Source of the DNA: an uncultured Gammaproteobacteria bacterium
Lineage (GTDB): Bacteria > Patescibacteriota > Patescibacteriia > Magasanikbacterales > GWA2-37-8
Assembly (NCBI GenBank): GCA_964634875.1
Contig: CAZWKA010000003.1
Coordinates: 16,591-80,590, forward strand
Reading direction: 5' to 3'
Length of the DNA: 64,000 bases
The position numbers and the translations under genes were made by a program. This document shows positions 9,501-55,431 of the stretch, piece after piece (positions within the stretch are counted from its first letter, which is position 1; each line of letters opens with the position of its first letter). The notes under the pieces were generated by a model. The model had not been told where the DNA came from and searched no databases. It worked only from the letters and a program-made list of their open reading frames with translations.

Positions 9501-9515
9501 TCAATTCTTTATTTA

Positions 9516-12309: not shown

Positions 12310-12324
12310 AGGCTTCTCCTTAAA

Positions 12325-12337
12325 GCAACTTAGTTGC
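12325..12337. promoter_or_regulatory. palindrome GCAACTTAGTTGC (copy 2)
   Basis: Lies 16 bp upstream of the GTG start of the 11638..12309 gene on its promoter side. Extended motif GCAACTTAGTTGCACTTGTACCACAGG. Confidence 0.5.
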
Positions 12338-12368
12338 ACTTGTACCACAGGAATACCTAGTTGTCAAT

Positions 12369-12381
12369 GCAACAAAGTTGC
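12369..12381. promoter_or_regulatory. palindrome GCAACAAAGTTGC (copy 3)
   Basis: Upstream of the Fur-family regulator gene. Extended motif GCAACAAAGTTGCGTTTATCCACAGG. Confidence 0.5.
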
Positions 12382-12450
12382 GTTTATCCACAGGTGCTAC
12401 TTGAAAAAACTCAGTATTTTTGCTAGACTACCAGCATTAAAGCATTTTTT

Positions 12451-12891
12451 ATGACTACTTCGCACCAAGTTATCGCTGACCTTAAGGATCGGGGAGAGCG
12501 CATTACCGAAATCCGGCGCATCTTGGTAGACATTCTCGCCAAAAGTCACAAGCCGTTATCGGTGCAAGATATTTTGGCGAAATTAAAAATTCGCTGTATT
12601 GAGGCGAATAAAACCACCGTCTATCGTCAATTGGAAACGCTCCATAAGTATAATTTTATTTACGAAGTGCGTTTGGCGGATCGTTCGGTTTTGTACGAGC
12701 TTGCCAGTGAAGACGATCACCACCATCATTTAGTGTGTCTCGGTTGCGGTACGATAGAAGATGTGTCGTTTAAGGACGACGTGGAACGCCAGGAAAAAAA
12801 TATTTTAAAAATAAAGAAATTTAAAGTTGTGCGCCACTCGCTCGAATTTTTCGGCTGGTGCGCTAAATGTCAGAAAAAATATGGCAAATAA
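12451..12891 (+). CDS. Fur-family metalloregulator (Zur/Fur-like)
   Basis: 146 aa. HHHHLVCLGCG ... CAKC metal-binding motifs and a winged-helix N-terminus. Confidence 0.8.
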   Translation: MTTSHQVIADLKDRGERITEIRRILVDILAKSHKPLSVQDILAKLKIRCIEANKTTVYRQLETLHKYNFIYEVRLADRSVLYELASEDDHHHHLVCLGCGTIEDVSFKDDVERQEKNILKIKKFKVVRHSLEFFGWCAKCQKKYGK

Positions 12892-13810: not shown

Positions 13811-14565
13811 ACCATAACAAAAATATACTCGAAGTTAAAAACGTTTCGTTTGCCTATAGTGCAAATGCACCGGTTTTGACCGCTATTTCTCTCAATATTC
13901 ATTCGGGGGATTATTTAGGTGTTATTGGTCCGAACGGTGGCGGCAAGACCACGCTTCTCAAAATTATGCTCGGACTCCTTCAGCCAACGAGTGGGAGTAT
14001 TTCTTTGTTCGGCCAAGACATCCGCGATTTTAAAGATTGGCCAGCGATTGGGTATGTGCCTCAGAAGGCGGTTAATTTTGACCTCAAGTTTCCGGCTACT
14101 GTCAAAGAAGTAGTAGCAATGGGGCGGTTTGGCAAACGGGGGTTGTTACGTCTTCCGACCAAAGAAGACCGGAACCAGGTGGAAGAAGCGTTGCGCCAGG
14201 TTGATATGATTGAATACCGAGACCGTTTGATTGGTGATTTGTCGGCTGGGCAGCAGCAGCGCGTGTTTATTGCCCGCGCACTGGCCACGGAACCGAAAAT
14301 TATTTTTTTGGATGAACCAACGGTTGGAGTTGATGTTGCAACCCAGGAACAATTTTATCGTTTGCTGGAAAAACTAAACCAAACACTCGGTCTTACCCTC
14401 GTGTTGGTGTCGCACGATATTGATGTTATTGCGAACGAAGCAACGGAACTGGCGTGTATTAACCAGACTTTGGTGTATCACGGCAGCCCGAAAGAATTTG
14501 TAAAAGGGGAGTACTTGCAACAATTATATGGTAAGAACCTTAAGTTTATTTTGCATGATCACTAA
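13801..14565 (+). CDS. metal ABC transporter ATP-binding protein
   Basis: Walker A GPNGGGKTT, signature LSAGQQQR, Walker B IIFLDEP. Confidence 0.85.
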   Translation: MSVDHNKNILEVKNVSFAYSANAPVLTAISLNIHSGDYLGVIGPNGGGKTTLLKIMLGLLQPTSGSISLFGQDIRDFKDWPAIGYVPQKAVNFDLKFPATVKEVVAMGRFGKRGLLRLPTKEDRNQVEEALRQVDMIEYRDRLIGDLSAGQQQRVFIARALATEPKIIFLDEPTVGVDVATQEQFYRLLEKLNQTLGLTLVLVSHDIDVIANEATELACINQTLVYHGSPKEFVKGEYLQQLYGKNLKFILHDH

Positions 14566-14568
14566 AGG

Positions 14569-15384
14569 TTGAAAAGTAAAAGTATGTTTTTAGAAATTTT
14601 TCAATATTCATTTATCCAGCGTGGCCTTGAGGCTGGGATTTTGATTGCGATTATTGCCCCGCTTATTGGTATTTTTTTGGTACTCCGCCGGTATTCTTTG
14701 ATTGCGGATACGCTGTCACACGTTTCGCTCGCCGGTGTGGCGATTGGTCTTCTGGCAGGTATTAACCCCATCATTACTGCGCTTGCTACTTCGGGCGCGG
14801 CTGCCCTCGCAATTGAAAAATTGCGTAGCTCCAAAAAAGTATACGGCGAAACTGCCTTGTCAATTTTTCTTTCAGGGGGCCTCGCGCTCGCGGTGGTGCT
14901 TATTAGTCTGGCGCACGGCTTCAATGTTAACTTGTTTAGTTACTTGTTTGGGAGCATTGTTACGGTAAAGCAAAGTGATGTTATGTTGATCGCTGTTTTG
15001 GGCTTGGTCATCATTGTCCTGTTATTTTCATTTTATAAAGAGCTTGTCTATATTTCATTTGACGAAGAGGCGGCCAAAGTCAGCGGGATACCGGTAAAGG
15101 CAATCAACTTTATTTTTATCTTGCTGGCGGCTATGACGGTCGCGCTTGCGATTCCAATTGTTGGTATCCTTTTGATTTCGGCCTTGATTGTGATCCCGGT
15201 AGTTACGGCGCTACAGCTTAAGAAAAGTTTTTCTACTACCTTGTGGTATGCCGAGGGCTTTTCAATTTTTTCGGTGGTGAGTGGAATCCTGCTCTCGTAT
15301 TATTTTGACCTCTCGCCGGGTGGTACGATCGTGCTTATTACTTTGGCTTTGTTTAGCCTAATTTTAGTCTTTAAACGGGCTTAA
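14569..15384 (+). CDS. metal ABC transporter permease (ZnuB-like)
   Basis: 271 aa with 8-9 TM helices. Operon position. Confidence 0.8.
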   Translation: MKSKSMFLEIFQYSFIQRGLEAGILIAIIAPLIGIFLVLRRYSLIADTLSHVSLAGVAIGLLAGINPIITALATSGAAALAIEKLRSSKKVYGETALSIFLSGGLALAVVLISLAHGFNVNLFSYLFGSIVTVKQSDVMLIAVLGLVIIVLLFSFYKELVYISFDEEAAKVSGIPVKAINFIFILLAAMTVALAIPIVGILLISALIVIPVVTALQLKKSFSTTLWYAEGFSIFSVVSGILLSYYFDLSPGGTIVLITLALFSLILVFKRA

Positions 15385-16734: not shown

Positions 16735-17862
16735 ATGAAGATCGCTACCAATGTACATCGGGATGCCTTTGGGGGTATTACGGTCTCCAATCTTGCTCTT
16801 TTTGATTGGCTGAAAGATAAAGAAGATACGGTTGTAGGTATTGAAATCATTACGGCTCGACACCTGCTCGGGCCAGAAATATTTCGACACTATTTACCGT
16901 CTTTTTTTCATCACCACATTATTAACGGTATTGATATAATGCCTCGTTTTTCGTGGGAAAAATGGGGGAGCCCTCGAAAAAAATGGAGTATTCTCATAGA
17001 AAAAACAAAAGATATTTTACGCCAAGAGTCGCCGGATGTTGTTTTGATTAATGGAACGTATAGTACGCCTTGGATTTTGGCCCAGGCCGCACAAGAGTTG
17101 GGAATACCATTGGTTCTACGCTATGCCGGAGTGCTTCAAAAAGAAGTAAGTCATAAGAATTTTTTTATAAAAAGGCGGTTGCTAGCTTATGAAAGGTGGC
17201 TTGCTTCGTCCGCCACCAGCATTATTTTTCCTTCTCGTGTTTGCCAAAAAATTGTAGAAAAAGAAATAGTAGGACACGCTGTTCAGCGCAGCATGGTTAT
17301 TCCGAACCCTGCAGTCCCTCCAAAAAATTTGATGCGAAGAAAAGCGGGGCGTTTTACCATTTGTGCGATAGGGAGGTGGACATCAATCAAAAATTTTCAA
17401 GCATTTGTAGCTTTACACCACGAGCTTCTTTCTCAGCAATGGCAACATCGGGCGGTTATGGTAACTTCGTATTGGGATAAAGCATTTGATATTCCTGAAA
17501 CGATTGAAAAGAAAAAACAAATGAGTCAAGAAGATCTTTTCAAATTTTATCGCTCCATTGATCTTCTTGTTGTTCCTTCGCATTTTGAGACATTTTGCAA
17601 TGTTGCCGCAGAAGCGCTGGTGAGCGGAACGTCTGTTTTAGTATCAAAAAATGTAGGATTTTCTGAAATACTTATAAAGTGCGGATTAAAAAGAATGGTA
17701 ATTGACTCGTTTGATAATCCTGTAAAGGTTGCTCAAGCGGTACAGCGAATTGCCAAAACCAAACTTTCACAAAGCGAAATAAAAAAAGTTGCTTGTTTGC
17801 TCAACCCGCAAGGGATACACCAGAGCATGCTCGATGTTCTAAATAGCGTTATAAAAGTATAA
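16735..17862 (+). CDS. glycosyltransferase, GT4-like (GT-B fold)
   Basis: 375 aa. The C-terminal VVPSHFETFCNVAAEALVSG matches the EX7E motif region. Confidence 0.65.
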   Translation: MKIATNVHRDAFGGITVSNLALFDWLKDKEDTVVGIEIITARHLLGPEIFRHYLPSFFHHHIINGIDIMPRFSWEKWGSPRKKWSILIEKTKDILRQESPDVVLINGTYSTPWILAQAAQELGIPLVLRYAGVLQKEVSHKNFFIKRRLLAYERWLASSATSIIFPSRVCQKIVEKEIVGHAVQRSMVIPNPAVPPKNLMRRKAGRFTICAIGRWTSIKNFQAFVALHHELLSQQWQHRAVMVTSYWDKAFDIPETIEKKKQMSQEDLFKFYRSIDLLVVPSHFETFCNVAAEALVSGTSVLVSKNVGFSEILIKCGLKRMVIDSFDNPVKVAQAVQRIAKTKLSQSEIKKVACLLNPQGIHQSMLDVLNSVIKV

Positions 17863-17898
17863 CTAATAGTACCAAGGTCGTTCGTAGAGTGTTTTGTA

Positions 17899-17937
17899 AA
17901 AAAATACCCAAACTTTTTAAGTTTGGGTATTTTTTTG
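17899..17937. terminator. bidirectional terminator hairpin
   Basis: AAAATACCCAAAC-tttttaa-GTTTGGGTATTTTT. Confidence 0.75.
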
Positions 17938-18006
17938 TGGCCACGAGTGGGGTCGTTAGCGCGCACGCCTCGTGGATACGTGAGTGGGCAGGGGAAAGCG
18001 GTCGAG

Positions 18007-18435
18007 CTAGTTGAGGGGCTCGAGGGCGATCGTGACCCAGCGCTCGCTCTCGAGCTGCTGCTGCCGGGGCTGTCGTAGCCGCTCCTGGCTTAGCCGAAAC
18101 GAGGCACGCAGGAACGTCTCGAAGGCTGAGGCGCGTAGCGGGTTCATCTTGATGTAGTAGCACCGCCACCAGTTGGGGTTGGCTCGGTCGAAGGTGGTCG
18201 AACGGGTCGTCCGGCTCTTCTGGACCATGACGAGGATGCGACGCCCGGGACCCTTGTCGTCTTCCCGAACGAGCTCGCCTTCGTCGTCGATGCCGACGAA
18301 TTCCCTGAGGACGCGCAGAATGTCCTCGTGGAAGATGGAAACCTGGCCTGGCCACCGTGCCGCTTCTCCGTCGGAGAGCTGGTGGACCAGGATACCGGGC
18401 TCAGCCACCTCTTTACTCGCTGCTTCGATCATCAA
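18007..18435 (-). CDS. hypothetical protein encoded in a high-GC islet
   Basis: ATG at 18435 with AAGGAGG 5 nt upstream. 142 aa with no recognisable motif. GC visibly about 60% versus low-40s flanks. Confidence 0.4.
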   Translation of the reverse strand: MMIEAASKEVAEPGILVHQLSDGEAARWPGQVSIFHEDILRVLREFVGIDDEGELVREDDKGPGRRILVMVQKSRTTRSTTFDRANPNWWRCYYIKMNPLRASAFETFLRASFRLSQERLRQPRQQQLESERWVTIALEPLN

Positions 18436-34349: not shown

Positions 34350-36398
34350 ATGCCTGCTAAACCTCAGCATTTCAGCAAGACGCCGACGCATTCCCAGGTA
34401 AAATCGAGACTGGCCGGTATTTTAATACTCGTTGTTTTTTGTGCAGTTGTGGCTGCGCCAGCCTACGCCAATAAAGGTATTGATTGGGTAAACAACACCG
34501 CCAACCTCGGGTTGCCCCGATTACCGGATAACGGTTACAACCTTGGTCTTGATCTCCAGGGTGGCGCACACCTCGTGTACCAAGCGAAAACAGATGCTAT
34601 TGCCGAAGCTGATAAAGCTAGTTCGGTTGAGGGTGTGCGTGATGTTATCGAGCGTCGTGTCCGTGGTGGTTTGGGTGTATCAGAACCGCTCGTCCAGACG
34701 ACTAAGGTTGGGAGTGATTACCGCATCATTGTTGAACTGCCTGGCGTGACGGATGTTAATCAGGCGATTAAGAGTATTGGCGAAACACCTGTTCTAGAAT
34801 TTAAAGAAGAAAATACTGCCCCACCACGGGAATTGACTGCAGCCGAAACAAAACAGCTCACTGATTTTAATAAAGCCGCTGATACAAAAGCGAAAGAAGC
34901 CCTTCGGGCAGTGCAGCGCGGCATGAACTTTGCTGAAGCCGCGGCTAAGTATAGTGAGGATGAAAAAACTAAGACCGCCGGCGGAGATCTAGGTTTTATT
35001 GATGAGACCGTCTATCCAGAATTATTTGCCTGGGCTAAAACCCACAAAGTAAATGAAGTCGGTAATGCTTTGGTTACGACGCCGACAGGTCTGAATGTCG
35101 TAAAAAAAGTAGCAGAAAAAGAGGGTGAAAAAGAAGTTACAGCTTCGCACTTGCTGATTTGTTTTGCCGGTGCCACGCGCTGTGATGACGCGCAATATTC
35201 TAAGGAAGATGCTCTTAAGAAAATCCAGGAAATTAAAGCAACGATTACTCCAAAAAACTTTGCCGAAAAGGCAAAAGAATTTTCGACTGAACCCGGGGCT
35301 GACCAGAGCGGTGGCGTACTTGGCACTTTTAAAAAAGGAGCTTTGGTAAAACCGTTTGAGGATGCTGTTTGGGATCAGAAAGTTGATACCATTTCTGAGC
35401 CAGTGGAAACGGAGTTTGGTTACCATCTTATCCATAAGACCGGTGAGGCAATCGCTAAGCAGTACCAGGTTGCTCGCATTTTGGTAGCCACTAAAACCAA
35501 GACAGATATCGTCCCACCAGCAGAACAGTGGAAATCAAGCGGCCTTACCGGTAAGCAGCTCGAACGAGCCGAGGTTACCCAAAACCAAATTACCGGAGAT
35601 ATCCAGGTAAGCCTTAATTTTGATGATGAAGGTTCTAAGTTATTTGCTGATATTACCGGCCGTAATGTGGGGAAAGCAGTAGCTGTTTTCCTTGACGGTG
35701 AAATTATCAGTGCCCCGGTTGTTAACGCGGCAATTACCACGGGGAGTGCGGTAATTACGGGTGGGTTTAGCTTGACTGACGCTAAGCTTTTGGCGCAGCG
35801 CCTTAATTCAGGTGCGTTGCCGGTACCAGTTGAGCTCCTCAGCCAGCAAACCGTGGACGCTACGCTTGGTGCTGATTCGCTTGATAAGAGTTTCCGTGCT
35901 GGTGTCTTTGGTTTGATTGCAGTTATGGTCTTTATGATTCTTTATTACCGCTTACCAGGCCTTTTGTCCGTACTATCCTTGGCTTTCTACGCCCTCCTGA
36001 GTTTGGCGGTATTCAAATTGATGGGTGTAACATTGACGCTCTCTGGTATTGCTGGGTTTATTCTTTCCATCGGTATGGCGGTTGACGCTAATGTGCTTGT
36101 ATTCGAGCGTCTTAAAGAAGAGTTGGCTGCGGGTCGAACGCTTAAGTCAGCTACTGAAGAAGCCTTTATTCGTTCGTGGCCTTCAATTCGTGATAGTCAT
36201 ATTACCGCCCTCATCAGCTGTGTCTTCTTGATTTGGTTTGGTACTGGGTTTATCCAAGGTTTTGCCGTTATCTTGGGAATTGGTACTTTAATTAACCTGT
36301 TTACCGCCATCACGGTAACGAGGACAGTCATGCGGTCGGTTTTCCCTTTCCTTAATGAAAAAGGAAATATTCTCTTTTTAGGATATAAAAAAGATTAA
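34350..36398 (+). CDS. secD: protein translocase subunit SecD with two inserted parvulin-type PPIase domains
   Basis: The SecD N-terminal TM helix and C-terminal 6-TM RND-like domain are present. Two parvulin signatures are inserted in the periplasmic domain: AGGDLGFIDETV and SGGVLGTFKKGALVKPFEDAVW. Confidence 0.8.
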   Translation: MPAKPQHFSKTPTHSQVKSRLAGILILVVFCAVVAAPAYANKGIDWVNNTANLGLPRLPDNGYNLGLDLQGGAHLVYQAKTDAIAEADKASSVEGVRDVIERRVRGGLGVSEPLVQTTKVGSDYRIIVELPGVTDVNQAIKSIGETPVLEFKEENTAPPRELTAAETKQLTDFNKAADTKAKEALRAVQRGMNFAEAAAKYSEDEKTKTAGGDLGFIDETVYPELFAWAKTHKVNEVGNALVTTPTGLNVVKKVAEKEGEKEVTASHLLICFAGATRCDDAQYSKEDALKKIQEIKATITPKNFAEKAKEFSTEPGADQSGGVLGTFKKGALVKPFEDAVWDQKVDTISEPVETEFGYHLIHKTGEAIAKQYQVARILVATKTKTDIVPPAEQWKSSGLTGKQLERAEVTQNQITGDIQVSLNFDDEGSKLFADITGRNVGKAVAVFLDGEIISAPVVNAAITTGSAVITGGFSLTDAKLLAQRLNSGALPVPVELLSQQTVDATLGADSLDKSFRAGVFGLIAVMVFMILYYRLPGLLSVLSLAFYALLSLAVFKLMGVTLTLSGIAGFILSIGMAVDANVLVFERLKEELAAGRTLKSATEEAFIRSWPSIRDSHITALISCVFLIWFGTGFIQGFAVILGIGTLINLFTAITVTRTVMRSVFPFLNEKGNILFLGYKKD

Positions 36399-36422: not shown

Positions 36423-37337
36423 ATGAAAAAAATTCCTTTTATTAAGTACCGAAAGACCTGGTTGGCACTTGCCTTGATTACCCTTGTTATTGGCGCAGGC
36501 ATGCTCTTGAAATGGGGTCTCAAGCCAGGTATCGATTTTACTGGTGGGTCACTTTTTGAACTGTCGTTTGGCAGTGCTGCTCCGGCAACAGAACAGATTG
36601 AACAGAATATAAAGAGTCAGGGTGTTGAAGAAGTGATTGTCCAGCGCTCAAGTGATAACCGTTTCATTATTCGTACTGGTTTTTTGAACGAAGACCAACA
36701 CCAGAAAGTTATCGGAGCACTCCGGAAAGAATTTGAGAATAAAGATCGTTCGCTTACCGAAGACCGGTTTGAGACTATCGGCGCCACCATAAGCCAGCAG
36801 CTCCGGCAGCGGTCACTCTGGGCGGTAATCCTCGTGAGTCTGAGTATTATTTTGTATGTTGCATTTGCTTTCCGTCAGGTTAATCGTCCGTTGCCTAGTT
36901 GGCAGTATGGTTTGATTGCAATCATAACCCTTTTGTATGTTGTTGTTATCGTTGGAGGTGTCTTTGCTGCGCTCGGCCGGTTTAAAGGGGTTGAAGTCGA
37001 CGTGGCGTTTGTGGTAGCAATATTGACTGTACTTGGCTATTCGGTAAATGATAGCATCGTCGTATATGACCGTATCCGCGAAAATTTAACCCGGAATCGA
37101 ATCGATGATTTTGGCGAGCTCGTTAATACCGGGCTTAATGAAACATTGGCTCGTTCAATTAATACCGTGGCAGCTGTTTTGTTTCCATTGTTTGCCCTGT
37201 ATTTTTTTGGCGGTTCGACTGTTCATTATTTTGCCTTAGCCTTGCTCCTGGGTATGGCTATTAGTACAATTTCTTCTATTTTTGTCGCCAGTCCGCTTTT
37301 GGTAGTAGCTGAAGAATGGCAGCGCAAGAAGGCCTAA
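36423..37337 (+). CDS. secF: protein translocase subunit SecF
   Basis: 304 aa. One TM helix, a periplasmic domain, then 5 TM helices. Immediately downstream of secD. Confidence 0.85.
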   Translation: MKKIPFIKYRKTWLALALITLVIGAGMLLKWGLKPGIDFTGGSLFELSFGSAAPATEQIEQNIKSQGVEEVIVQRSSDNRFIIRTGFLNEDQHQKVIGALRKEFENKDRSLTEDRFETIGATISQQLRQRSLWAVILVSLSIILYVAFAFRQVNRPLPSWQYGLIAIITLLYVVVIVGGVFAALGRFKGVEVDVAFVVAILTVLGYSVNDSIVVYDRIRENLTRNRIDDFGELVNTGLNETLARSINTVAAVLFPLFALYFFGGSTVHYFALALLLGMAISTISSIFVASPLLVVAEEWQRKKA

Positions 37338-45549: not shown

Positions 45550-45812
45550 ACTACTGTTTATTTTTTTGACTTAGTTTGCTGTATGATTCGAGTGTGGGGC
45601 AGTGTCAAGTTTAAGAAGCGCTGTTCCTCGCGCACTCCCTCCGGGGTTAACAAAATTTAACAATAGAAAAACAGGAGTCAGGACTTTTGTTGCGGTCTAC
45701 GAAAAAATCGCTGAACTTGTCGTTTCCCATACGTTACCATACAACCCCTATCATTTCTAGGTCAAAATAATTGCTTTTTTTACTATACTAAGGTAGGTTT
45801 AGCCCAAGGAGC

Positions 45813-46226
45813 GTGGATATGAAGAACATCATTTTTGCTTCCTTGGCAGTTTCCTGTGGCATTGGATGTGCGCATCAGCCGCGCGTGGCTCCGCTACTGC
45901 CGGTCAAATCACGCCCAGGCCTTAACCGCGAGAAGATCCTGGTCGAAGTTGCTCCCTCAAACTTGTTTGGGCAGCATTATGCAGGCCTTCGGGCTGTGGT
46001 CATATCATTTCAGCCCCAAGAACGTGTCTGGACGTATTCTGGGGGCAACTATGGCCGTACCCCGGTATGCCCCGGTGAGCGTTCGGTGCCATTTTTTTTC
46101 CAGCCGCGTCCAGAGTACGTGTCTCCGGACCTGCGCAACCTCAAAACAGGGCGACGAGCCAAAATGTACTTTTTTCCAAGTACAACCAGGCAAGTTGAGG
46201 TGATCTTTATTTGTCCGGATATGTAG
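45813..46226 (+). CDS. small lipoprotein/secreted protein in a moderately GC-elevated segment
   Basis: Signal peptide MKNIIFASLAVSCGIGCA. No homolog recognised. Confidence 0.4.
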   Translation: MDMKNIIFASLAVSCGIGCAHQPRVAPLLPVKSRPGLNREKILVEVAPSNLFGQHYAGLRAVVISFQPQERVWTYSGGNYGRTPVCPGERSVPFFFQPRPEYVSPDLRNLKTGRRAKMYFFPSTTRQVEVIFICPDM

Positions 46227-46376
46227 CTAACCCTGCCTCCATGGTGTGCGTGGGGTTAGAAAAAGATGTATATTAAAAAATCCCTCCTACCGATATTCGT
46301 TCGCTACCTGCGGGGACGAGTGTTGGCGAGGGATTTTTTATTTTTTAACGGCTGCTATGTGGGATGTATAGCTGTG

Positions 46377-46447
46377 TTCGGGGACCAGGATTCGAACCTA
46401 GATACACAGCTTCAGAGGCTGTAGTCCTACCATTAGACGATCCCCGA
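46377..46447 (-). tRNA. tRNA-Gln (anticodon CTG)
   Basis: On the minus strand. Acceptor TCGGGGA/TCCCCGA, D-stem GTCT/GGAC, anticodon stem ACAGC/GCTGT with loop CTCTGAA, T-arm GGTTCGAATCC. Confidence 0.7.
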
Positions 46448-46459: not shown

Positions 46460-47200
46460 CTACTCTTCTTTTGAGCTGGTGAAGAGCACTGTTGGTTCAC
46501 CGCTCGTTTTTTGGGTAGCATGACTATAGTCATGCAGTGTGTCCAAGATTGTAGCATATGGATAGCGCGAGTCAAGCCCGCCCTCCCACCCGTTATCATT
46601 AACGATAAACTCCCGTTTTTGTTCGTCAAAACCAACTAAAACCATCATGTGGTACGATGAGCCGGTTGGTAGAAAGTTGAGGCGTGGGTTATTGAGTCCA
46701 AAGCCGTAGTGGAGGGAAATCACGGGACGGCCAGCGGCGATTTCGGTTTTAATTTCTTTTAAGGTGGGGTTGCGTTTGATAGTTGCTGTAAACGAAGTTG
46801 CTTCGTTGATAAGGCGGGCAGTTTCGGCTGCATCCGTATTGGCGTTATAGCCAAATTTTTTGTTTTCCCACGCCACGAGTTCTAAGATGCGCTTTTCTTC
46901 TTCGGCGCGATTAGCTGGTTTTGTGCCGCGGTAAAATTGTTCAACCATGGCAACGCTAGCCTCTTCACAGGCGTTATTCCAGGGTTTTGTCCAATTATTA
47001 TTAACTACTTCAGGTATGAAAGGTACGTCTAAATTAACCACCGTCTGTTCCTTTTCCTCGCTGGGCTTGGGAGGTGTGGGAGTGGAAGAGGTGGTTTTGT
47101 CAGGGGTGGACGTTTCGATCGTGGTGGTGTGTGGAAGTGTTGGTTTGCCACAGCCGGAAAGCAGGGAAACAGCAGTAAGAAGGAGGAACAGTCTTTTCAT
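46460..47200 (-). CDS. lipoprotein with papain-like Peptidase_C39-like (BtrH-like) domain
   Basis: Lipobox LLSGC. Cys in NNACEEASVAMV and His in SSYHMMVLVG are separated by about 110 aa. Confidence 0.55.
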   Translation of the reverse strand: MKRLFLLLTAVSLLSGCGKPTLPHTTTIETSTPDKTTSSTPTPPKPSEEKEQTVVNLDVPFIPEVVNNNWTKPWNNACEEASVAMVEQFYRGTKPANRAEEEKRILELVAWENKKFGYNANTDAAETARLINEATSFTATIKRNPTLKEIKTEIAAGRPVISLHYGFGLNNPRLNFLPTGSSYHMMVLVGFDEQKREFIVNDNGWEGGLDSRYPYATILDTLHDYSHATQKTSGEPTVLFTSSKEE

Positions 47201-47206: not shown

Positions 47207-48862
47207 TTAGCTTACCAGTTCGCCGCCAAATTCGCTAGCCAGCGTATTAAGGGTCGTATCTGGTGTAGCAGCTCCATAGGGTGAGGCGGCGGGTACTACC
47301 TTAGAATTGAGATTTATTTTTTCATTACATAATTTTTCGAGCGCGTCTTCAACGGCGCGGCGGTTTTTGTGCTCTTCTAGTTTTTCTTTATGGAAAGCAT
47401 AAGGGACGGCGAGGTGCAGTCCTTCGTGGTCGATGCTTTCAATTGAAGACATTTTCAAGATAAATGTCAGTGAGTGGTTAGTTTCGGAGAGTTTAGTCAT
47501 CAGGTCGTTCCATTTACTTTTAATATCTTCAAGCGTCGTGGTTGGAGGTTGGTGGTGGCCGGTAAGTGTGGAAAGGGCTGATTTGATTGACTGGCCAATG
47601 CTTTGTTCGGGTATCTTTTCTGATTCGGCTAGTGGCTGTGGTTCCACCATCTGTTTTACGGGGGCGGCTTTTAGAGGGGTGGTGGTCTGGGTCGCTGGTT
47701 GTGCGGCAGCGGAAGCTGTGGAGCGTAATCCAACTGTTGGTGGGGTAATCGGTGCTGCTTCAGGGGAATGGCAGAATTCTACTGCCAAGAGTTCTAGTGG
47801 TAAAAGGGGAAAGGGCGCACTTTTCATTTCGTTGCGTCGTTTGATGGCCAGGTCCAGAAGCCGAACTAGAGACGGTGCAGAAATTGCGACGCTTGTTTTT
47901 TCAAGCGCACCAAGTGTTTCGGTGCTGTAGAGACCCGAGAAAAAACTAGTGTCTTTGGTGCTTTGGATAATCAGGAGTGCGTGGAGCATTTCAATAAGGT
48001 CAAGCGCAAATTGTTGGGTGTTTGCTCCTTCAGTATGGAGTCTGCCTAGGAGTTTTACTGCTTCTGTGCTATTGAGTGCGATTAAGTGTCCGGTGAATTC
48101 GAGTACTCGAACTGTGTCGGAGCTCGGCAAGATCATTTCAGCATCAGCCTCACTGATTTTTTTTCCACCCGGGGTGGTGAGTGACAATATCTGGCCAAGC
48201 AAACTTTCGGCGTCGCGCAAGCCTCCTTCGCTTTTCCTGATAATGCGGTCAAGCACTACTTCGTCAACGGTTACCCCTTCGGCAGTAGTAATTTTTTTCA
48301 AACATTCCTTCATGAGGGCGTACGGGATGTTTTGAAAGTGAAATCGCTCGCAACGGGAGACAACGGTGGCAGGTAGTTTGTGAAGTTCGGTAGTAGCTAA
48401 AATAAAAATAGCATGCTTCGGAGGTTCTTCCAGCGTTTTTAAGAGCGCGTTGAACGAGCTGGTTGAAAGCATGTGGACTTCATCGATGATAAAGATTTTG
48501 TATTTTGAAGCTGTTGGTTTAAATTGAGCATTTTCAATGATGTTTTCGCGGACATTGTCTACACCGGTTTGTGAAGCAGCGTCAACTTCAATAACATCAA
48601 TACTGCGACCTGCTGTGATATCTGTGCATGACCGGCAGGTGTCGCAGGGCTCAGCGCTGTCTACGGGGCGGTTTTGACAATTGATGGCCTTGCTGACCAG
48701 GCGGGCAATTGTTGTTTTACCCGTACCGCGTGGCCCATAGAAAAGATAGGCATGGGAGACGGTGCCACGTTTAATTTCGTTTTGGAGTGTTTGGAGGATG
48801 TGTTCTTGCCCAAAGACTGAAGAAAAATTTTGAGGACGGTATTTGCGGTAGAGTGTAGTCAT
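47207..48862 (-). CDS. dnaX: DNA polymerase III subunit gamma/tau
   Basis: YRPQNFSSVFGQEH, GPRGTGKTT, zinc module CDTCRSC, DEVHMLS. Confidence 0.9.
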   Translation of the reverse strand: MTTLYRKYRPQNFSSVFGQEHILQTLQNEIKRGTVSHAYLFYGPRGTGKTTIARLVSKAINCQNRPVDSAEPCDTCRSCTDITAGRSIDVIEVDAASQTGVDNVRENIIENAQFKPTASKYKIFIIDEVHMLSTSSFNALLKTLEEPPKHAIFILATTELHKLPATVVSRCERFHFQNIPYALMKECLKKITTAEGVTVDEVVLDRIIRKSEGGLRDAESLLGQILSLTTPGGKKISEADAEMILPSSDTVRVLEFTGHLIALNSTEAVKLLGRLHTEGANTQQFALDLIEMLHALLIIQSTKDTSFFSGLYSTETLGALEKTSVAISAPSLVRLLDLAIKRRNEMKSAPFPLLPLELLAVEFCHSPEAAPITPPTVGLRSTASAAAQPATQTTTPLKAAPVKQMVEPQPLAESEKIPEQSIGQSIKSALSTLTGHHQPPTTTLEDIKSKWNDLMTKLSETNHSLTFILKMSSIESIDHEGLHLAVPYAFHKEKLEEHKNRRAVEDALEKLCNEKINLNSKVVPAASPYGAATPDTTLNTLASEFGGELVS

Positions 48863-48942: not shown

Positions 48943-51498
48943 TTATAACGTAGCTTCGCTGAAATCTATATCATCAGGTTTGCTGGAACCAAGCTGGGCA
49001 CGATCCATGATTTCGGCATTGACGATCTCGCGCGGACGGCCATATTTGAGGCGGGAAAGTTCTTTGATGGCAGCCGCTAGTTCCTTGTTACCTTCTTTGG
49101 GACCGTATGTCAACATATTAAAAGGTTTGGCAGCAGTATTGTCGATAAGAAGTTTAATATACGCAGTATATTGTTCGACGTTAATCAGGTCGTACGCACC
49201 AAATACAGGCGCGAATTCCTTGGCGAGAACTTCGGCGTCTTCAACACCGATACGGAAGGAAACAAGTGTGCCCGCGTTACCAAGCACGGCGTCGCGCACT
49301 GTGGTTTTACCTTTGTTGTCTTCAAGTTGCTTCATGTACTGGTGGGCAATGATTAACTCTAAGCGATACTTGCGAGCTTCGGATAAAATGGTGGCAATCG
49401 AGTCAGTAATAAAGTTTTGGAACTCATCGATGTAGAGGAAAAAGTCGTTGCGCTGGTCTTCTGGAAGCGAGGCGCGCTCCAGGGCAGCCATCTGAAGTTT
49501 GCTTACAATAATCATGCCCATCAGGTTGGCATTAATTTCACCCACTAAACCTTTGGCTAGGTTAACGAGGAGAATTTTTTTACCATCCATCACTTCGCGG
49601 AAATTAAAGCCGGAATGTGATTGGCCGATGATGTTACGAACCATTTCGTTTTCAACAAAACGTCCGACTTTGGAGATGAGATAGCCGAGCATTTCTGATT
49701 TGTGGAAGTCAGATGTTTTAGCCATTTCTTTATCCCAATAAGCGCGCACCACCGGATCTTTCAGTTTTTTCTTCCACTGATTTACAAAGGTGTCGTCGCT
49801 GAACATGCGGGGAATTTCAGCAATAGTGCCCGGGTTTTCAAGGTCCGACATGAGGGTTAACATGACGTTGCGCATGTTATGCTCAAACATTGGACCGATC
49901 ATCGACGGATCAGTAACCATTTTATAAAAAATGGAGATCATTTCTTGAGTGGCAAAGTCTTTTTGTTCCTCGCTTCTGACCTCGAGCATGTTCAGGCCGA
50001 TCGGGCGTTCAATGTCTGAGGGGTTGAAATAAATAACATCGTCGGCACGCTCTTTGGGGACGTGTTGCAGTACGTATTCGACAAAGTCACCGTGGGGATC
50101 GATAACACAGACCCCCTCACCGTTTTGGATGTCTTGAACTGCCAGGTTTTGGATAAAGACCGATTTACCGCCACCCGATTTACCGATGACATAGAGGTGT
50201 CGCCGGCGGTCGGAAACTTTCATTTTTACGAGTGTTTCTTCGCCACGGTACATGGCGCGTCCTAAGAGGAGGCCTTCTTTAGGCATGTTGGCTGGCGGCG
50301 GCGCTTTACGGGCTCCGAGCCAGTTAATGTGAGGGGTTTCGGTGTGAGGGACGGGAAGGTGCCAAAAACTAGCCATCTCCTCGGTATTCATAACCATGTA
50401 AAAACCTTCGCGCATGGAGCGATAGATCGACTCTTGGATCAGTGCGGTTTGGCGACGGGGGATGGCTGCGCCAAACGAATTGCCGTAACGGTAAATATTG
50501 TACTGGCTGAAGGAGTTGATGATGTTCTCAAGATTCAATTGGGCTTTTTCTTTGCTAGCAGCTGAGCTGATGAGGCGGATTGTAACTTCAAGTCCGCCGT
50601 GGCTGATTTTTTCTTCCATGTTTTTGACCATCTCTTCTTCCATTTGGGTGAGGTGGTATTTTTCACTGGCTGGTTTACTTGGGTCGTGCTTTTTTGGGAA
50701 AAGCAATTTGCCCAACTTCCCAATTTGGTGGAAAAAAGCGATGCGGTTGGCAACATCCTCAAATTTTTGGCCTTCGCGGATTTCGCGGATGATGTGCACA
50801 GCTTCATGGCGCCATTTTCCGCTGGCTGGACGGACGACATATTGGATGATAGCACCTTCATCTTCAGCGATTTTGCTCAGCGGGTTGAGGATGGAAAGAA
50901 GCGGGTCAGCGTCCATTTTTTTGTAGGTTTTGAAAGGAAAAATTGATTTGTGTTTGAACCACAAATAAGCTCCAACAACATGGCTCGTTGGCTTAAAAAT
51001 GTTATAATCGCTTTCCTCGGTAATTTCGGCGTGTGGATACTGGGCATGGATTTGTTGTTCGACCAGGTCGCGGATTTTATCAGGTACGGCAACGTAAAAT
51101 GAGATTTTGTTTTCTTTTACGACAATTTCAAAAGCAATATGGTCATTGCGTCCGCGCAGCCAAGGGCCCAGTCCTTTTTCTTTGTGCAAACCGGCGATGG
51201 AAGAAAAGAAAGTGTCAGCAACGGCGATTTGTTCACGGACCTGGTTGATATTGTCTTCATTGCCACCTTCTTGTTTTTCACTTTTTCTTTCTTTGGGGAC
51301 ACGGATAAGGAAGATGGTGCGGTGGAATGCCTTGCCTGCTTTATTTTTAGCGTGCAAAACCCCTCGAGCCGTAAACAAAATAGCCAGGAAAATTCCGACT
51401 ATGATAAGGCAGAAGAAAATAGCCGCGCTAATCGGGCTCGCTAGAGCGGCGTTGGCCGCTTCCCTTAGAAAATCAATAAAAGGGGTCAAGAGTTCCAT
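48943..51498 (-). CDS. membrane-anchored FtsK/HerA-superfamily ATPase, VirB4/TraC-like (N-terminal TM + ~420-aa domain + P-loop NTPase)
   Basis: Walker A VIGKSGGGKS, Walker B FFLYIDEF, then EARKYRLELIIAHQY (RKxG...TQ-like). Confidence 0.55.
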   Translation of the reverse strand: MELLTPFIDFLREAANAALASPISAAIFFCLIIVGIFLAILFTARGVLHAKNKAGKAFHRTIFLIRVPKERKSEKQEGGNEDNINQVREQIAVADTFFSSIAGLHKEKGLGPWLRGRNDHIAFEIVVKENKISFYVAVPDKIRDLVEQQIHAQYPHAEITEESDYNIFKPTSHVVGAYLWFKHKSIFPFKTYKKMDADPLLSILNPLSKIAEDEGAIIQYVVRPASGKWRHEAVHIIREIREGQKFEDVANRIAFFHQIGKLGKLLFPKKHDPSKPASEKYHLTQMEEEMVKNMEEKISHGGLEVTIRLISSAASKEKAQLNLENIINSFSQYNIYRYGNSFGAAIPRRQTALIQESIYRSMREGFYMVMNTEEMASFWHLPVPHTETPHINWLGARKAPPPANMPKEGLLLGRAMYRGEETLVKMKVSDRRRHLYVIGKSGGGKSVFIQNLAVQDIQNGEGVCVIDPHGDFVEYVLQHVPKERADDVIYFNPSDIERPIGLNMLEVRSEEQKDFATQEMISIFYKMVTDPSMIGPMFEHNMRNVMLTLMSDLENPGTIAEIPRMFSDDTFVNQWKKKLKDPVVRAYWDKEMAKTSDFHKSEMLGYLISKVGRFVENEMVRNIIGQSHSGFNFREVMDGKKILLVNLAKGLVGEINANLMGMIIVSKLQMAALERASLPEDQRNDFFLYIDEFQNFITDSIATILSEARKYRLELIIAHQYMKQLEDNKGKTTVRDAVLGNAGTLVSFRIGVEDAEVLAKEFAPVFGAYDLINVEQYTAYIKLLIDNTAAKPFNMLTYGPKEGNKELAAAIKELSRLKYGRPREIVNAEIMDRAQLGSSKPDDIDFSEATL

Positions 51499-51524
51499 GC
51501 CGGAAACTTAAGGAGTCAAATATT

Positions 51525-52025
51525 TTATTTTTTGATGTGCACGATCCGATCGGTTTTGATCTTTGCTTCTTGTTCCAGGAAAAAACGGTTCACACCCGGC
51601 AGTAATTTAAGCCATTCAAAAATAAGCTTAAAGATTTTTTTAGCTTTGATATGGGTTGAAAGCATGAGTTCTCGGATTTTGAGAGCCACTTCTTCACCTT
51701 TGATCTTAAATTCCTGTTTAGCGACAGGGGAGAGTCGTTGGTAAGAATCCCCCAGGCCTTCTTCAAGAACTTTTTCAATACTGATGGTGATCTCGTCGCG
51801 TTTGACGGGGATGACTACTTTTTTAGGGCGGTGCAGGCTCGGAAAATGAAAACGAGCCTCGGGGTTTTTACCTGGGCCAGTGGATTTTTCATTCCCAGAA
51901 GGCTCCTCACGCAGGACTTCATGGGCGCGTTCCGGGCTCGGGGTGCTTTTCCCTTGTTCGGGGCCAGGAGCGTTTTTTGGTTTTTCAAATCGAGAGGGCG
52001 AGAGTGGAAGTTCGTTGTCACTCAT
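51525..52025 (-). CDS. hypothetical protein upstream of and co-oriented with the VirB4-like ATPase
   Basis: ORF with an ATG at 52025. The ORF track extends it to a TTG at 52064. Charged, Lys-rich C-terminus. Confidence 0.4.
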   Translation of the reverse strand: MSDNELPLSPSRFEKPKNAPGPEQGKSTPSPERAHEVLREEPSGNEKSTGPGKNPEARFHFPSLHRPKKVVIPVKRDEITISIEKVLEEGLGDSYQRLSPVAKQEFKIKGEEVALKIRELMLSTHIKAKKIFKLIFEWLKLLPGVNRFFLEQEAKIKTDRIVHIKK

Positions 52026-52207
52026 AGTGCTCACTAGTGTAGCATGTTTTTTGCCCAACAACAATATCTTGTGGGAGCGAAATTTAAAAGTATGTTACTC
52101 TCGGTTTGTCATTCTGAGTGAAGCGAAGAACCTCTTCGAAAAGTCTTTCTGTATCCTGAGGCGGACATTGATCGGTCAGCGGTTCGGGGGCGGATTGGTT
52201 CTCTTTA

Positions 52208-55050: not shown

Positions 55051-55431
55051 ATGGACAAAGATAAAGCTCATATTTTGCTGGTAGAGGATGATGTGTTTTT
55101 ATCGAATATCTATCAGAAAAAGTTTGAAATGGAGGGGTTCAAGATCAGTACTGCAGACAATGGTGAAAAAGGTTTGGCAGATGCAAAACGCAAGAAGCCA
55201 GATATTATTTTGCTTGATGTCCTGCTGCCCAAGCTCGATGGTTTTGCTGTGCTTGAAAAATTGAAAGAAGATCCGGCGACAAAAGAAATTCCTGTCATCC
55301 TCCTGACCAACCTCGGCCAGAAAGATGATGTAGAAAAAGGCTTAGAATCTGGTGCGGCTGATTATTTGATTAAAGCCCATTTCAAACCATCGGAAGTTGT
55401 GGATAAGGTGAAAAAAATATTGCAGCAGTAG
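55051..55431 (+). CDS. single-domain response regulator (CheY/PilH-like)
   Basis: ILLVEDD ... DIILLDVLLPKLDG ... LTN...K. Confidence 0.8.
   Translation: MDKDKAHILLVEDDVFLSNIYQKKFEMEGFKISTADNGEKGLADAKRKKPDIILLDVLLPKLDGFAVLEKLKEDPATKEIPVILLTNLGQKDDVEKGLESGAADYLIKAHFKPSEVVDKVKKILQQ

Follow-up and report, generated by a model that had tools for sequence, protein, structure and literature searches.

The DUF8128-ATPase encoded in the window, the 64,000-nucleotide stretch of DNA analysed here, unites both classic motors of type IV secretion systems (T4SS) in one hybrid protein, in which a VirB4-type N-terminal domain is joined to a coupling-type ATPase of the VirD4/TrwB type. The genome around the gene is of the Magasanikbacteria type, within the Patescibacteria (CPR). 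For the role of the protein, the preferred reading is that it may serve as the coupling-type motor of a dispersed CPR T4SS, with confidence and doubt about evenly balanced. An earlier note on this DNA had proposed a dispersed, monoderm-type translocation system, which is still the best reading. The same note called such systems poorly characterised, which is half true: the description is partly apt, but the DUF8128-ATPase family has already been annotated and surveyed. New here are an ATPase-less paralogue at 37.7 kb, the presence of the partner domain in Kuenen- and Kerfeldbacteria, the conservation ranking and the distinction of two paralogue types.

Domain architecture and class of the ATPase

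The open reading frame of 851 aa was confirmed to encode one N-terminal hydrophobic helix, an intermediate domain and a P-loop ATPase with Walker A and Walker B motifs, as the earlier note had described (Table 1). For an identical protein, P0001, PF26449 (DUF8128) has been precomputed. The AF2 model reached a pLDDT of 86.1 and a pTM of 0.72. A single hydrophobic segment was identified at aa 23-44 (Kyte-Doolittle peak 14-51), and in this region AF2 places helices at aa 4-20 and 22-58. Since the anchor is followed by basic residues, the remainder of the protein is predicted by the positive-inside rule to be cytoplasmic. Judged by sequence, both Walker motifs are intact, and in a family alignment of 31 sequences the residues G439, G444, K445, D691, E692, Q694 and Q720 are invariant.

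Table 1. Features of the DUF8128-ATPase locus and of the paralogue in the window
Feature	Position	Strand	Evidence or remark
DUF8128 + T4CP-like ATPase gene, 851 aa	48943..51498, including stop codon	-	ORF, Pfam
N-terminal membrane anchor, aa 1-58	51325..51498	-	Hydropathy, AF2 helices
Hydrophobic core of anchor, aa 23-44	51367-51432	-	
DUF8128 domain, aa 59-412 (~350 aa)	50263..51324	-	VirB4 N-terminal-domain fold
RecA-like P-loop ATPase domain, aa 413-800	49099..50262	-	Pfam, PDB profile, Foldseek, hhalign
Walker A GKSGGGKS, aa 439-446	50161-50184	-	
All-helical insertion in ATPase domain, aa 512-640	49579-49965	-	AF2 secondary structure
Walker B LYIDEF, aa 688-693	49420-49437	-	
RKY...AHQ block, aa 709-720	49339-49374	-	
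Partner gene, 166 aa from ATG 52025	51525..52025	-	ORF, BLAST, family of 1,376 proteins
dnaX, co-oriented downstream neighbour	47207..48862	-	Probably outside the system
C39_2 lipoprotein gene, co-oriented downstream	46460..47200	-	Probably outside the system
tRNA-Gln, co-oriented downstream	46376-46447	-	Probably outside the system
DUF8128-only paralogue, 488 aa	37687..39153	+	BLASTP to ATPase protein aa 113-409

A PF26449 N-terminal domain followed by PF10412, PF01935, PF02534 and PF12696 in one chain of about 850 aa places the protein in the DUF8128-ATPase family; the same string has been precomputed for P0001 and about 120 relatives. In all 39 full-length representatives of the N-terminal domain, the Walker A motif is found at about position 400-460.

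At the family level the ATPase belongs with the type IV coupling proteins (T4CPs). TrwB_AAD_bind, T4SS-DNA_transf, DUF87 and TraG-D_C were matched above their curated Pfam cutoffs, with 46.5 bits for PF10412 over aa 425-777 (cutoff 20.5), 39.1 bits for PF02534 (20.1) and 30.9 bits for PF12696 (22). The best solved sequence relatives in a PDB profile search were TrwB (1.3e-7) and DotL (5.6e-4), with no VirB4, and Foldseek aligned TrwB with a TM score (by target) of 0.62-0.67 over ~430 columns. By hhalign, 283 columns were aligned with the T4CP TrsK, from Walker A through Walker B, against 76 columns with the VirB4 protein TrsE; the lean of the ATPase HMM to T4CPs is modest (TrwB 36 bits, TrsK 21, VirB4 TrsE 17). 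Like VirD4, TrwB and TraD, the protein combines a RecA-like NBD, Walker A and B motifs and N-terminal membrane anchoring. Its all-helical insertion at aa 512-640, which lies within the PF10412 match, may correspond to the all-alpha domain (AAD) of TrwB. No T4CP equivalog or subfamily (TraD, CD1115 VirD4-like and others) was matched, the best NCBIfam scores being 53.6 against 366 and 37.2 against 250. Unlike a T4CP, in which a two-helix TMD leads straight into the NBD, the window protein has one hydrophobic segment, with the folded VirB4-NTD-like domain placed between anchor and NBD.

This intermediate domain has the fold of the VirB4 N-terminal domain. Unlike in the VirB4 proteins TrwK of R388, TraC of F and PrgJ of pCF10, no NTD sequence similarity is present: CagE_TrbE_VirB was not matched, AAA_10 scored 15 bits against 27.5 and TIGR00929 12.4 against 643, and the N-domain HMM did not rise above 0 bits on TrwK, PrgJ and TrsE, with no match to TraC. 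The window protein also differs from VirB4 in having its own membrane helix and no separate VirB3. For the VirB4 NTD of R388, a role as the VirB4-VirB4 dimer interface and binding of VirB3 and of the VirB8 tails have been described (PMC9259494). The mixed VirB4/VirD4 label of the earlier note is thus apt, with a VirB4-NTD fold in the N-terminal domain and an ATPase that scores as a T4CP, and the Pfam part of the domain check proposed there gave TraG-D_C and DUF87 above the cutoffs, AAA_10 below and no VirB4 NTD. Two other classes were rejected. For FtsK/SpoIIIE, PF01580 scored 13.7 bits against 24, and the 4TM, alpha and gamma domains are absent; for HerA, DUF87 covers only aa 413-517 and the NCBIfam HerA models gave 15-17 bits against cutoffs of 800-970. 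In the fold search HerA ranks below TrwB. Together, these comparisons place the protein, within the FtsK-HerA superfamily, on the VirB4/VirD4 branch.

The same architecture was identified outside the CPR. The family phrog_5156 is matched end to end, through DUF8128 and the ATPase, with 2.9e-92 over aa 117-834, and gp156 of Bacillus phage G with 5e-47; the DUF8128-ATPase family HMMs match both halves of the phage and plasmid homologues. The phage G protein and the plasmid homologues (C. botulinum pCLJ, haloarchaeal megaplasmids) share 22-24% identity with the window protein and are found in mobile-element contexts. Here, gp156 adjoins a second ATPase of the VirB4/TraG type, gp155, and a Halorubrum homologue is embedded in a giant protein of 2,407 aa.

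Partner gene, ATPase-less paralogue and neighbouring genes

The upstream companion gene pointed out in the earlier note is real and conserved. Between its end and the start of the ATPase gene lie 26 nt; its reading frame extends to TTG 52064, which would give 179 aa, and NCBI chooses the 166-aa form (P0121). The N-terminal ~70 aa are variable and rich in Pro, Glu, Lys and Ser, while the C-terminal ~95 aa are helical and conserved, with the motif EWLKLLPGVNRFFLEQEAKIKTD. In a BLAST search across 80 loci, run with no coverage filter, the best match of the partner sits at the ATPase start in 77, which is every locus with upstream DNA. In Kuenenbacteria (1.7e-20) and Kerfeldbacteria (1.7e-23), too, the C-terminal domain is encoded ahead of the ATPase gene, and the partner is conserved in at least three CPR lineages. 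Searches against Pfam, NCBIfam, PDB and VirB3 gave no match for it. A small adjacent helical partner is a further likeness to T4CPs, for which TrwA (with TrwB) and CagZ (with Cag-beta) are such partners.

For the paralogue at 37.7 kb, the homology is limited to the N-terminal domain (BLASTP 1e-27, 26% identity). The protein has an N-terminal hydrophobic segment and a VirB4-NTD-like domain into which a Gly/His-rich stretch is inserted; a P-loop or ATPase domain is absent, and no family was found with the local Pfam copy. It is therefore not a second motor. It matches the N-terminal part of phrog_5156 (5e-11), and a PF26449-only protein of 471 aa is encoded in a relative (L002). The gene lies downstream of secD-secF in the window, and many related loci likewise have a DUF8128-only paralogue close to SecF/SecD. 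In concept it parallels TrsD of pGO1, which likewise stands alone as a VirB4-NTD-like protein, has no ATPase and was reported to be the most abundant T4SS component in Patescibacteria. However, no sequence relationship to TrsD was detected (hhalign probability 0.07), and the paralogue is membrane-anchored, twice as long and encoded beside secDF instead of virB4.

The dnaX, C39_2 lipoprotein, PilM, pilin and PilD genes listed in the earlier note are all present in the window. Of these, dnaX directly adjoins the ATPase gene where the identity of a locus exceeds about 70%; the distance is 1-6 kb in the 61-64% identity group and 2-4 kb in Kerfeld- and Doudnabacteria. The proximity of PilM, pilin and PilD reflects lineage synteny only, since two Magasanikbacteria-type contigs and the loci of Kerfeld- and Doudnabacteria lack this linkage. 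The C39 peptidase, suggested before as a system component, is linked only inside the Magasanikbacteria lineage and is missing from the Kuenen-, Kerfeld- and Doudnabacteria loci; therefore, nothing ties it to the ATPase. The segment 46376..48862 with dnaX, the lipoprotein gene and the tRNA is probably not part of the ATPase system. In Kuenenbacteria, an HU gene is found about 2 kb downstream of the ATPase gene.

Conservation, paralogue types and the probable counterpart in Southlakia

In paired comparisons across the loci of 80 species, the ATPase protein was more conserved than DnaX (75 of 75 loci), CysS (49 of 49), LigA (31 of 31) and SecF (17 of 17). With family members of other CPR lineages the identity amounts to 48-61%, the synteny of the gene is stable across the 80 species, and its GC content is the same as that of its surroundings. 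The ATPase gene thus behaves as a core gene and not as a relic: unlike T4CP genes, it is chromosomal, vertically inherited and under strong purifying selection, with no relaxase or T4SS gene near it.

CPR genomes carry two types of DUF8128-ATPase paralogues, one linked to a sigma factor and a non-sigma type that takes in the gyrase-linked sequences. The sigma-linked, SEML1_0293-like clade was monophyletic in 200 of 200 bootstraps, with the window protein outside. The latter groups among the remaining non-sigma sequences, which include the gyrase-linked type and were monophyletic in 29 of 200 bootstraps. Window protein and gyrase-linked type share 39% identity over 821 aa. Downstream of the ATPase, gyrB-gyrA was found in all 47 loci of the gyrase-linked type; ligA follows the sigma-linked paralogue in Kazan.

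For Southlakia epibionticum ML1, the sole genetically tractable relative, the data of Wang et al. (2023; PMC10633639) give the essentiality calls ES/ES/ES for SEML1_0142 (1,019 aa), flagged there as core and Patescibacteria-enriched, and GD/ES/ES for SEML1_0141, the abutting 139-aa gene upstream. SEML1_0293, a paralogue adjoining CRISPR-Cas, is listed as NE. The SEML1_0142/0141 pair is not discussed in those main-text passages of that study that were covered here. As in the window, a small abutting upstream gene precedes a protein of ~1,000 aa with an N-region of ~380 aa and a P-loop region at 381-800. Gyrase-linked metagenome loci have flanking markers in common with SEML1_0138-0145, namely yifB upstream, two small genes and gyrase downstream. 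In Se ML1, ATPase and gyrase are set apart by two opposite-strand genes, whereas in the metagenome loci gyrB follows directly. The gyrase-linked type differs from the window by the gyrase downstream, yifB upstream and an extra polytopic membrane protein of 117-120 aa; its small acidic partner has no detectable homology to the window partner. Partial synteny and tree position, in place of the Se sequence, suggest that the type of the window protein probably corresponds to the essential SEML1_0142/0141 pair.

Possible role of the DUF8128-ATPase in CPR bacteria

In the preferred reading, a T4SS motor, the N-terminal helix would anchor the protein in the cytoplasmic membrane, where, like its relatives, it most likely forms a hexameric ring. 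The VirB4-like domain would serve as a docking and dimerisation platform. Its candidate partners are the DUF8128 paralogue that lacks an ATPase and the inner-membrane components of the relaxase-less Patescibacteria T4SS, whose genes lie in another part of the genome. ATP hydrolysis would feed a macromolecular substrate into the T4SS or energise it, and the small acidic partner may act as adaptor or regulator, by analogy to CagZ/Cag-beta and TrwA/TrwB. A gene for a VirB2-type pilin (T4SS_pilin) abuts a family member in two loci (L173, 31.5 bits against a cutoff of 26.6; L069, 29.5 bits), and a pilin gene just below the cutoff is found beside a family member in L072 and on plasmid pCLJ. This adjacency is rare, with two of 80 Magasanikbacteria-type and none of 80 Saccharibacteria-type loci, and no case beyond these four in about 165 loci. 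As the earlier note had stated, no T4SS genes are in view: VirB4, VirB6 and VirB8 were not found among the Pfam-scanned ORFs, which do not cover every ORF of the window, and phmmer detected no VirB2- or VirB3-like ORF. Among the ORFs so scanned, virB2, virB3 or virB6 do not lie beside the ATPase gene in the window, and no T4SS gene or relaxase occurs within 10 kb in the scanned window ORFs and five other inspected contigs. This speaks against a T4SS motor, as do the rarity of the pilin adjacency, the modest HMM lean, the indirect orthology to SEML1_0142 and the low bootstrap value of the non-sigma group. A dispersed system agrees with a 2025 survey, in which 148 of 5,713 Patescibacteria T4CP homologues were located near virB4, a low share that itself counts against a T4SS motor, and exaptation was raised as a possibility. 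Separate virB4 loci were reported in ABY1 genomes, and CPR genomes also encode a canonical VirB4 of its own, SEML1_0008 in the case of Se ML1.

A self-contained translocase independent of any T4SS, made up of a hexameric pump, the small partner and possibly the DUF8128-only paralogue, is conceivable, though on balance unlikely. It would move nucleic acid or another polymer along the CPR membrane or through it, for example to take up DNA or RNA from the host or to export a component of the cell surface. The absence of T4SS-gene linkage in nearly all loci and the very strong conservation of the gene would fit, as would the occurrence of the family as a lone gene on plasmids of Firmicutes and haloarchaea and in Bacillus phage G; in a 2026 preprint a cultivated relative was reported to acquire host RNA. 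The P-loop region also gave weak matches to CedD and CedB, ATPases of archaeal Ced DNA import, but with 24.9 bits against a curated cutoff of 600. Moreover, one helix cannot form a pore by itself, loci of the window lineage encode no conserved channel-forming partner beside the gene, Se ML1 can grow without comEC-dependent DNA uptake, and the pilin adjacency in several lineages points to a T4SS. An extended version is quite unlikely: the DUF8128-ATPases would form a third, previously unrecognised VirB4/VirD4 lineage (anchor, docking domain and motor), the non-sigma paralogue and its acidic partner would be an essential T4SS-independent translocase in CPR for host-derived nucleic acid or another polymer, and the ATPase-less paralogue would be the 'outer' subunit of a VirB4-like dimer-of-hexamers.

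The recurring neighbours dnaX, gyrBA, ligA and HU could point to a chromosome-related role and would be explained if the protein pumped DNA in the manner of FtsK/SpoIIIE, in connection with replication or segregation. Even with dnaX adjoining the gene or lying within 2-6 kb of it in Magasanik-, Kerfeld- and Doudnabacteria, the gyrase genes in every gyrase-linked locus, ligA in Kazan and HU in Kuenenbacteria, such a role is very unlikely: the neighbours vary by lineage, and housekeeping neighbours are expected by default in small syntenic genomes. The ATPase of SEML1_0142, the presumed orthologue and essential, shares the ECOD domain e2iutB2 with the motor of Se ML1's own FtsK; however, that FtsK is complete, canonical and itself essential, and the window protein falls short of the FtsK_SpoIIIE profile and domain set. 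An orphan T4CP/HerA-like ATPase without a core role, either a remnant of an integrated conjugative element or a member of an anti-phage defence island, is hardly credible. The annotation of the family as a conjugation coupling protein, the plasmid and phage homologues, the PADLOC mad8 match (6.7e-17) with weak HerA matches on the ATPase half, and the non-essential SEML1_0293 beside CRISPR-Cas could be taken for it. But the mad8 match is limited to the generic ATPase core, the window protein stands outside the SEML1_0293-like clade, no relaxase, integrase or other defence gene adjoins the gene among the window ORFs scanned, and composition is native, synteny stable and conservation higher than for every flanking housekeeping gene tested.

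Mostly uncultured and dependent on host cells, the Patescibacteria form a very large branch of the bacteria. According to the literature, the T4SS is essential in S. epibionticum, yet the T4SS of Patescibacteria apparently lacks a coupling protein. Unlinked T4CP homologues have hitherto been treated as possibly exapted and dispensable; the present results point elsewhere, since these homologues carry a VirB4-type, putative docking domain and occur as two paralogue types, of which the type in the window is more constrained than DnaX or CysS. If the protein were a T4SS-independent translocase, it would be a missing motor of the epibiotic lifestyle. As a T4SS motor, the DUF8128-ATPase is a concrete candidate, open to testing, for the motor or adaptor that the CPR secretion machine is missing, and in evolutionary terms it provides an intermediate that links VirB4 with VirD4.

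The ATPase gene, its partner and their surroundings

The gene under study codes for a protein with a single hydrophobic segment (aa 23-44), an N-terminal DUF8128 domain (Pfam PF26449) and an ATPase half resembling type IV coupling proteins (T4CPs). The earlier note had described it as an 851-aa membrane-anchored P-loop ATPase, which was found to be correct from the ORF, the hydrophobic segment and the motifs listed in the table; the catalytic residues are invariant throughout the family alignment. The gene order on the minus strand is cysS, partner gene, ATPase gene, dnaX, a C39_2 lipoprotein gene and tRNA-Gln, and the opposite strand, past cysS, carries the genes for PilM, a response regulator, a pilin and PilD. 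The other ORFs scanned are housekeeping genes, for example for SecA, SecDF, FolD, DinB and LigA. VirB4, VirB6 and VirB8 were absent from the part of the window ORFs covered by the Pfam scan, in agreement with the earlier observation that no other T4SS components are in view. The GC content is uniform over the window, and an Rfam scan identified only tRNAs. Promoter and terminator predictions between 46 and 54 kb were no better than those for shuffled sequence, so that the transcription unit could be judged by gene spacing only.

Features of the window and motifs of the ATPase
Feature	Position	Strand	Remarks
Three tRNA genes (Tyr, Thr, Thr)	2201-2486		Precede the gene for the 985-aa protein
985-aa protein	2615-5572	+	C-terminal peptidoglycan-binding domain and fn3 domain
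SecD	34350-36398	+	Inserted PPIC-type rotamase (PPIase) domains, aa ~249-363 (Rotamase_3, 2e-34)
SecF	36423-37337	+	Followed 350 nt downstream by the DUF8128-only gene
DUF8128-only protein, 488 aa	37687..39153	+
Overlapping ORFs, ~800 nt	45550-46376		Several frames; neither Pfam nor Rfam match
Lipoprotein-like ORF, 137 aa	45813-46226		Inside the overlapping-ORF stretch
tRNA-Gln	46376-46447	-	Directly after the C39 gene
DUF8128 + T4CP-like ATPase, 851 aa	48943..51498	-	ORF
Walker A, GKSGGGKS	aa 439-446 of the ATPase
Walker B, LYIDEF	aa 688-693 of the ATPase
RKY...AHQ block	aa 709-720 of the ATPase
Partner, 179 aa (TTG) or 166 aa (ATG)	ATG at 52025	-	ORF; ends 26 nt upstream of the ATPase gene
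Response regulator, 126 aa, stand-alone	55051-55431	+	Flanked by pilM and the pilin gene; highest conservation of all genes in the region (median 76.8% identity between species, maximum 98%)

For the partner, the NCBI annotation uses the 166-aa form. The genetic context was surveyed in 80 loci, each from a different Magasanikbacteria-type species. Because synteny extends over the whole region in these loci, linkage there is mostly uninformative; the partner is the exception. When no coverage filter was set, the best BLAST match to the partner fell at the ATPase start in all loci with upstream DNA (77/80), which bears out the upstream partner gene proposed earlier, and in 42 loci the match passes a 60% coverage filter. 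The partner also stays at the ATPase start in the group of 61-64% identity, although dnaX is 1-6 kb distant there. Its conserved C-terminal domain was identified on the same strand upstream of the ATPase gene in Kuenenbacteria and Kerfeldbacteria, and was not found at the Doudnabacteria locus. Searches of Pfam, NCBIfam, PHROG and PDB gave no match for the partner protein. It has no similarity to VirB3/TrwM or to the protein encoded upstream of the family member on the Clostridium botulinum plasmid pCLJ, and it shares nothing with the 159-aa protein of the Saccharibacteria type beyond a 10-residue IPVxRD stretch (probability 0.5).

Class of the ATPase half and fold of DUF8128

The earlier note had labelled the ATPase as VirB4/VirD4-type, and profile and fold comparisons upheld this, with T4CPs matching best. 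T4CP Pfam families scored above their curated cutoffs, and AAA_10 (VirB4), FtsK_SpoIIIE and TIGR00929 all remained below theirs. In a PDB profile search, the closest solved relatives were TrwB (1.3e-7) and then DotL, with no VirB4 chain at an E-value of 1 or better. The hhalign alignment with the T4CP TrsK of pGO1 spans Walker A through Walker B, whereas that with the VirB4 protein TrsE covers the P-loop region only, and Foldseek aligned ~430 columns with TrwB at a TM-score of 0.62-0.67. A family-specific ATPase HMM was scored against its own members (78-151 bits), against T4CPs (TrwB 36, TrsK 21 and TraD 10 bits) and against VirB4 proteins (TrsE 17, TraC 7 and TrwK 1 bits). These scores moderate the assignment: the ATPase domain leans to the T4CPs but forms a clade of its own.

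The AF2 model of the full-length protein, based on a 79-sequence alignment, is confident (pLDDT 86.1), and that of the N-domain alone is better (pLDDT 90.0, pTM 0.87). Since no P-loop protein other than VirB4 was found among the structural matches of the DUF8128 domain, and since the full-length model is collinear with TrwK over ~900-950 columns, the match was assigned to the N-terminal domain (NTD) of VirB4 and not to the VirB4 ATPase. At the sequence level, no signal was obtained between DUF8128 and VirB4 NTDs or TrsD, so that the kinship, as judged from the predicted models, is at the fold level only. In the structure from R388, the entire interface of the VirB4central-VirB4outside dimer is formed by the VirB4 NTD, which also binds VirB3 and the tails of VirB8 (PMC9259494).

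The protein encoded at 37.7 kb, which had been regarded as a paralog of the ATPase, has only the N-domain in common with it (1e-27 over aa 113-409) and lacks the ATPase. It is a membrane-anchored, VirB4-NTD-like protein encoded downstream of secD-secF, and similar PF26449-only proteins were identified in related genomes. The order SecD, SecF and DUF8128-only protein is repeated in many related loci.

Distribution, genetic context and constraint

A protein identical to the window ATPase is already present in NCBI, encoded on a 155-kb contig, and close relatives (73-89% identity) were identified in Candidatus Magasanikbacteria and the "Patescibacteria group", with the precomputed Pfam string PF26449, PF10412, PF01935, PF02534 and PF12696. 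A profile search revealed members in Kuenen-, Kerfeld- and Doudnabacteria, mostly at ~50-60% identity, and the Kazan group carries the family too. When the N-domain alone was used for an exhaustive search, 1,951 clusters at 50% identity were obtained; among the best 150 matches, every full-length member has Walker A at position ~400-460, showing that the two-domain architecture is fixed.

The same architecture was found in phrog_5156, in gp156 of Bacillus phage G and on Clostridium, Bacillaceae and haloarchaeal plasmids. In a neighbour-joining (NJ) tree restricted to the DUF8128 family, these mobile-element copies are the outgroup to the clade from Patescibacteria (CPR) in 183/200 bootstraps. 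In phage G, two ATPase genes are adjacent, gp155 (6243-7892), coding for a VirB4-type ATPase (P-loop_TraG/AAA_10), and gp156 (7908-10385), coding for DUF8128 with a T4CP-like ATPase and annotated as 'MsbA-like'. On Halorubrum salinarum pHAR01 (7689-14912), a 2,407-aa protein combines DUF8128 (aa ~70-365) and the family ATPase (aa ~700-1053) with >1,300 further residues; similar N-domain matches were obtained on many megaplasmids of Natrinema, Haladaptatus and Haloterrigena.

Linkage to T4SS genes was found in few places. A VirB2-type pilin gene abuts a family member in loci L173 (31.5 bits, above the Pfam cutoff) and L069 (29.5 bits), and pilin scores slightly below the cutoff were obtained beside family members in L072 and pCLJ. 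No further VirB2-type pilin neighbours were identified in ~165 loci, and an iterative pilin search of all loci returned the three seed sequences only. Within 10 kb in the Kuenen-, Kerfeld- and Doudnabacteria contigs, no VirB4, VirB6 or relaxase was found. Quinonero-Coronel et al. 2025 surveyed 2,918 Patescibacteria genomes and identified 5,713 VirD4-type T4CP homologues, just 148 of them near virB4, and no VirB3-VirB4 fusions (PMC12102498).

The proximity of type IV pilus genes had been pointed out earlier, and the C39 peptidase had been considered as a possible wall hydrolase. Neither the pilus genes nor the C39 peptidase is consistently linked to the ATPase outside the lineage; the pilus link was rejected as functional evidence on this ground, and for the C39 peptidase only Magasanikbacteria synteny is left as support. 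In Kuenenbacteria, pilB, pilT and pilC lie 4-9 kb from the ATPase gene. The ATPase gene and dnaX are separated in a divergent Magasanikbacteria group (L065-L082) by a gene (for example L069, 5010-5558) for a conserved ~180-250-aa protein without Pfam match, with the motif EGVFNGEKM..G.EY.VPPNYASKSKLVEGD..KLTI. This VPPNYASKSK protein has no copy in the window, where the sole match was at chance level, inside dnaX. In the related genome L002, a reverse transcriptase gene (RVT_1, 16932-18349) adjoins a bAvd-family gene at a distance of ~4-6 kb from the ATPase gene, an arrangement resembling a diversity-generating retroelement.

Selective constraint was assessed by paired comparisons of the ATPase with a neighbour in the same locus. 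The median identity of the ATPase is 75.2%, and it was more conserved in every locus compared with DnaX (48.0%, 75/75 loci), CysS (60.8%, 49/49), LigA (65.9%, 31/31), SecD (61.9%, 5/5), SecF (54.2%, 17/17) and FolD (48.6%, 33/33). Judged by these identities, the constraint is unlike what would be expected for a decaying orphan conjugation gene.

Two paralogue types and the Southlakia gene pair

Wang et al. 2023 described the T4SS of Southlakia epibionticum (Se) as essential and without a recognisable coupling protein (PMC10633639). The supplementary tables of that work contain two Se ML1 proteins with the layout of the window ATPase (PMC10633639). SEML1_0293 (921 aa, NE/NE/NE) has a sigma factor as upstream neighbour, SEML1_0294, annotated as RpoS, which is essential while the downstream ATPase is not. 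SEML1_0142 (1,019 aa, with its P-loop at 381-800) is listed as ES/ES/ES; the input DNA had 114 insertions, of which only 9-11 were recovered. It abuts SEML1_0141 (139 aa, GD/ES/ES), and yifB and gyrase lie on either side of the pair.

Both types were also found in other loci. Two representatives of 941 and 960 aa directly follow a Sigma70_r4/HARE-HTH gene, like SEML1_0293, and each of their contigs encodes a second, shorter DUF8128-ATPase. The ~370-aa Sigma70_r4 + HARE-HTH protein always precedes the longer paralogue (L173, 6758-7855; L174, 6831-7955). In the metagenome loci of the gyrase-linked type, represented by P0351, yifB is followed by genes for a 120-aa polytopic membrane protein and a ~159-aa acidic protein and then by the ATPase gene, gyrB and gyrA, with gyrB after the ATPase in 47/47 and yifB upstream in 34/34 loci. 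The 120-aa protein, two genes upstream of this Saccharibacteria-like ATPase, is present in 62/63 loci (for example L105, 6159-6521) and is the counterpart of SEML1_0140, for which a growth defect is listed (PMC10633639); an equivalent was not seen in the window. These markers match the SEML1_0138-0145 region, the one difference being that the ATPase and gyrase of Se ML1 are separated by two genes on the opposite strand. The gyrase-linked ATPase shares 39% identity with the window protein over 821 residues. In 200/200 bootstraps of the NJ tree, the sigma-linked sequences form a monophyletic clade with the window protein outside; the latter groups with Kuenen-, Kerfeld- and Doudnabacteria sequences, with the gyrase-linked type in the same part of the tree, although the non-sigma remainder is monophyletic in 29/200 bootstraps only.

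An FtsK-like role of the window ATPase is weakened by its sub-threshold FtsK score and by the canonical, essential FtsK of Se ML1, and because canonical FtsK coexists with the family, a replacement of FtsK was rejected. That the gene is a defence or mobile-element remnant is contradicted by the conservation of the ATPase and by synteny. A serious alternative is an autonomous translocase that operates independently of a T4SS, since linkage of the ATPase to T4SS genes is so rare. The 2025 survey noted that the T4CP homologue of Se ML1 is non-essential, and it considered exaptation possible (PMC12102498).

Taken together, the shared flanking markers, the 39% identity and the position in the NJ tree suggest that the window gene pair is the counterpart of the essential SEML1_0142/0141 pair. 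DUF8128 was not mentioned in the literature searched; the family of the window gene is already known and annotated, and functionally uncharacterised in CPR. New here are the VirB4-NTD fold predicted for DUF8128, the conservation of the partner, the division into two types of paralogue, a constraint of unusual strength and the probable link to an essential pair of Southlakia genes.
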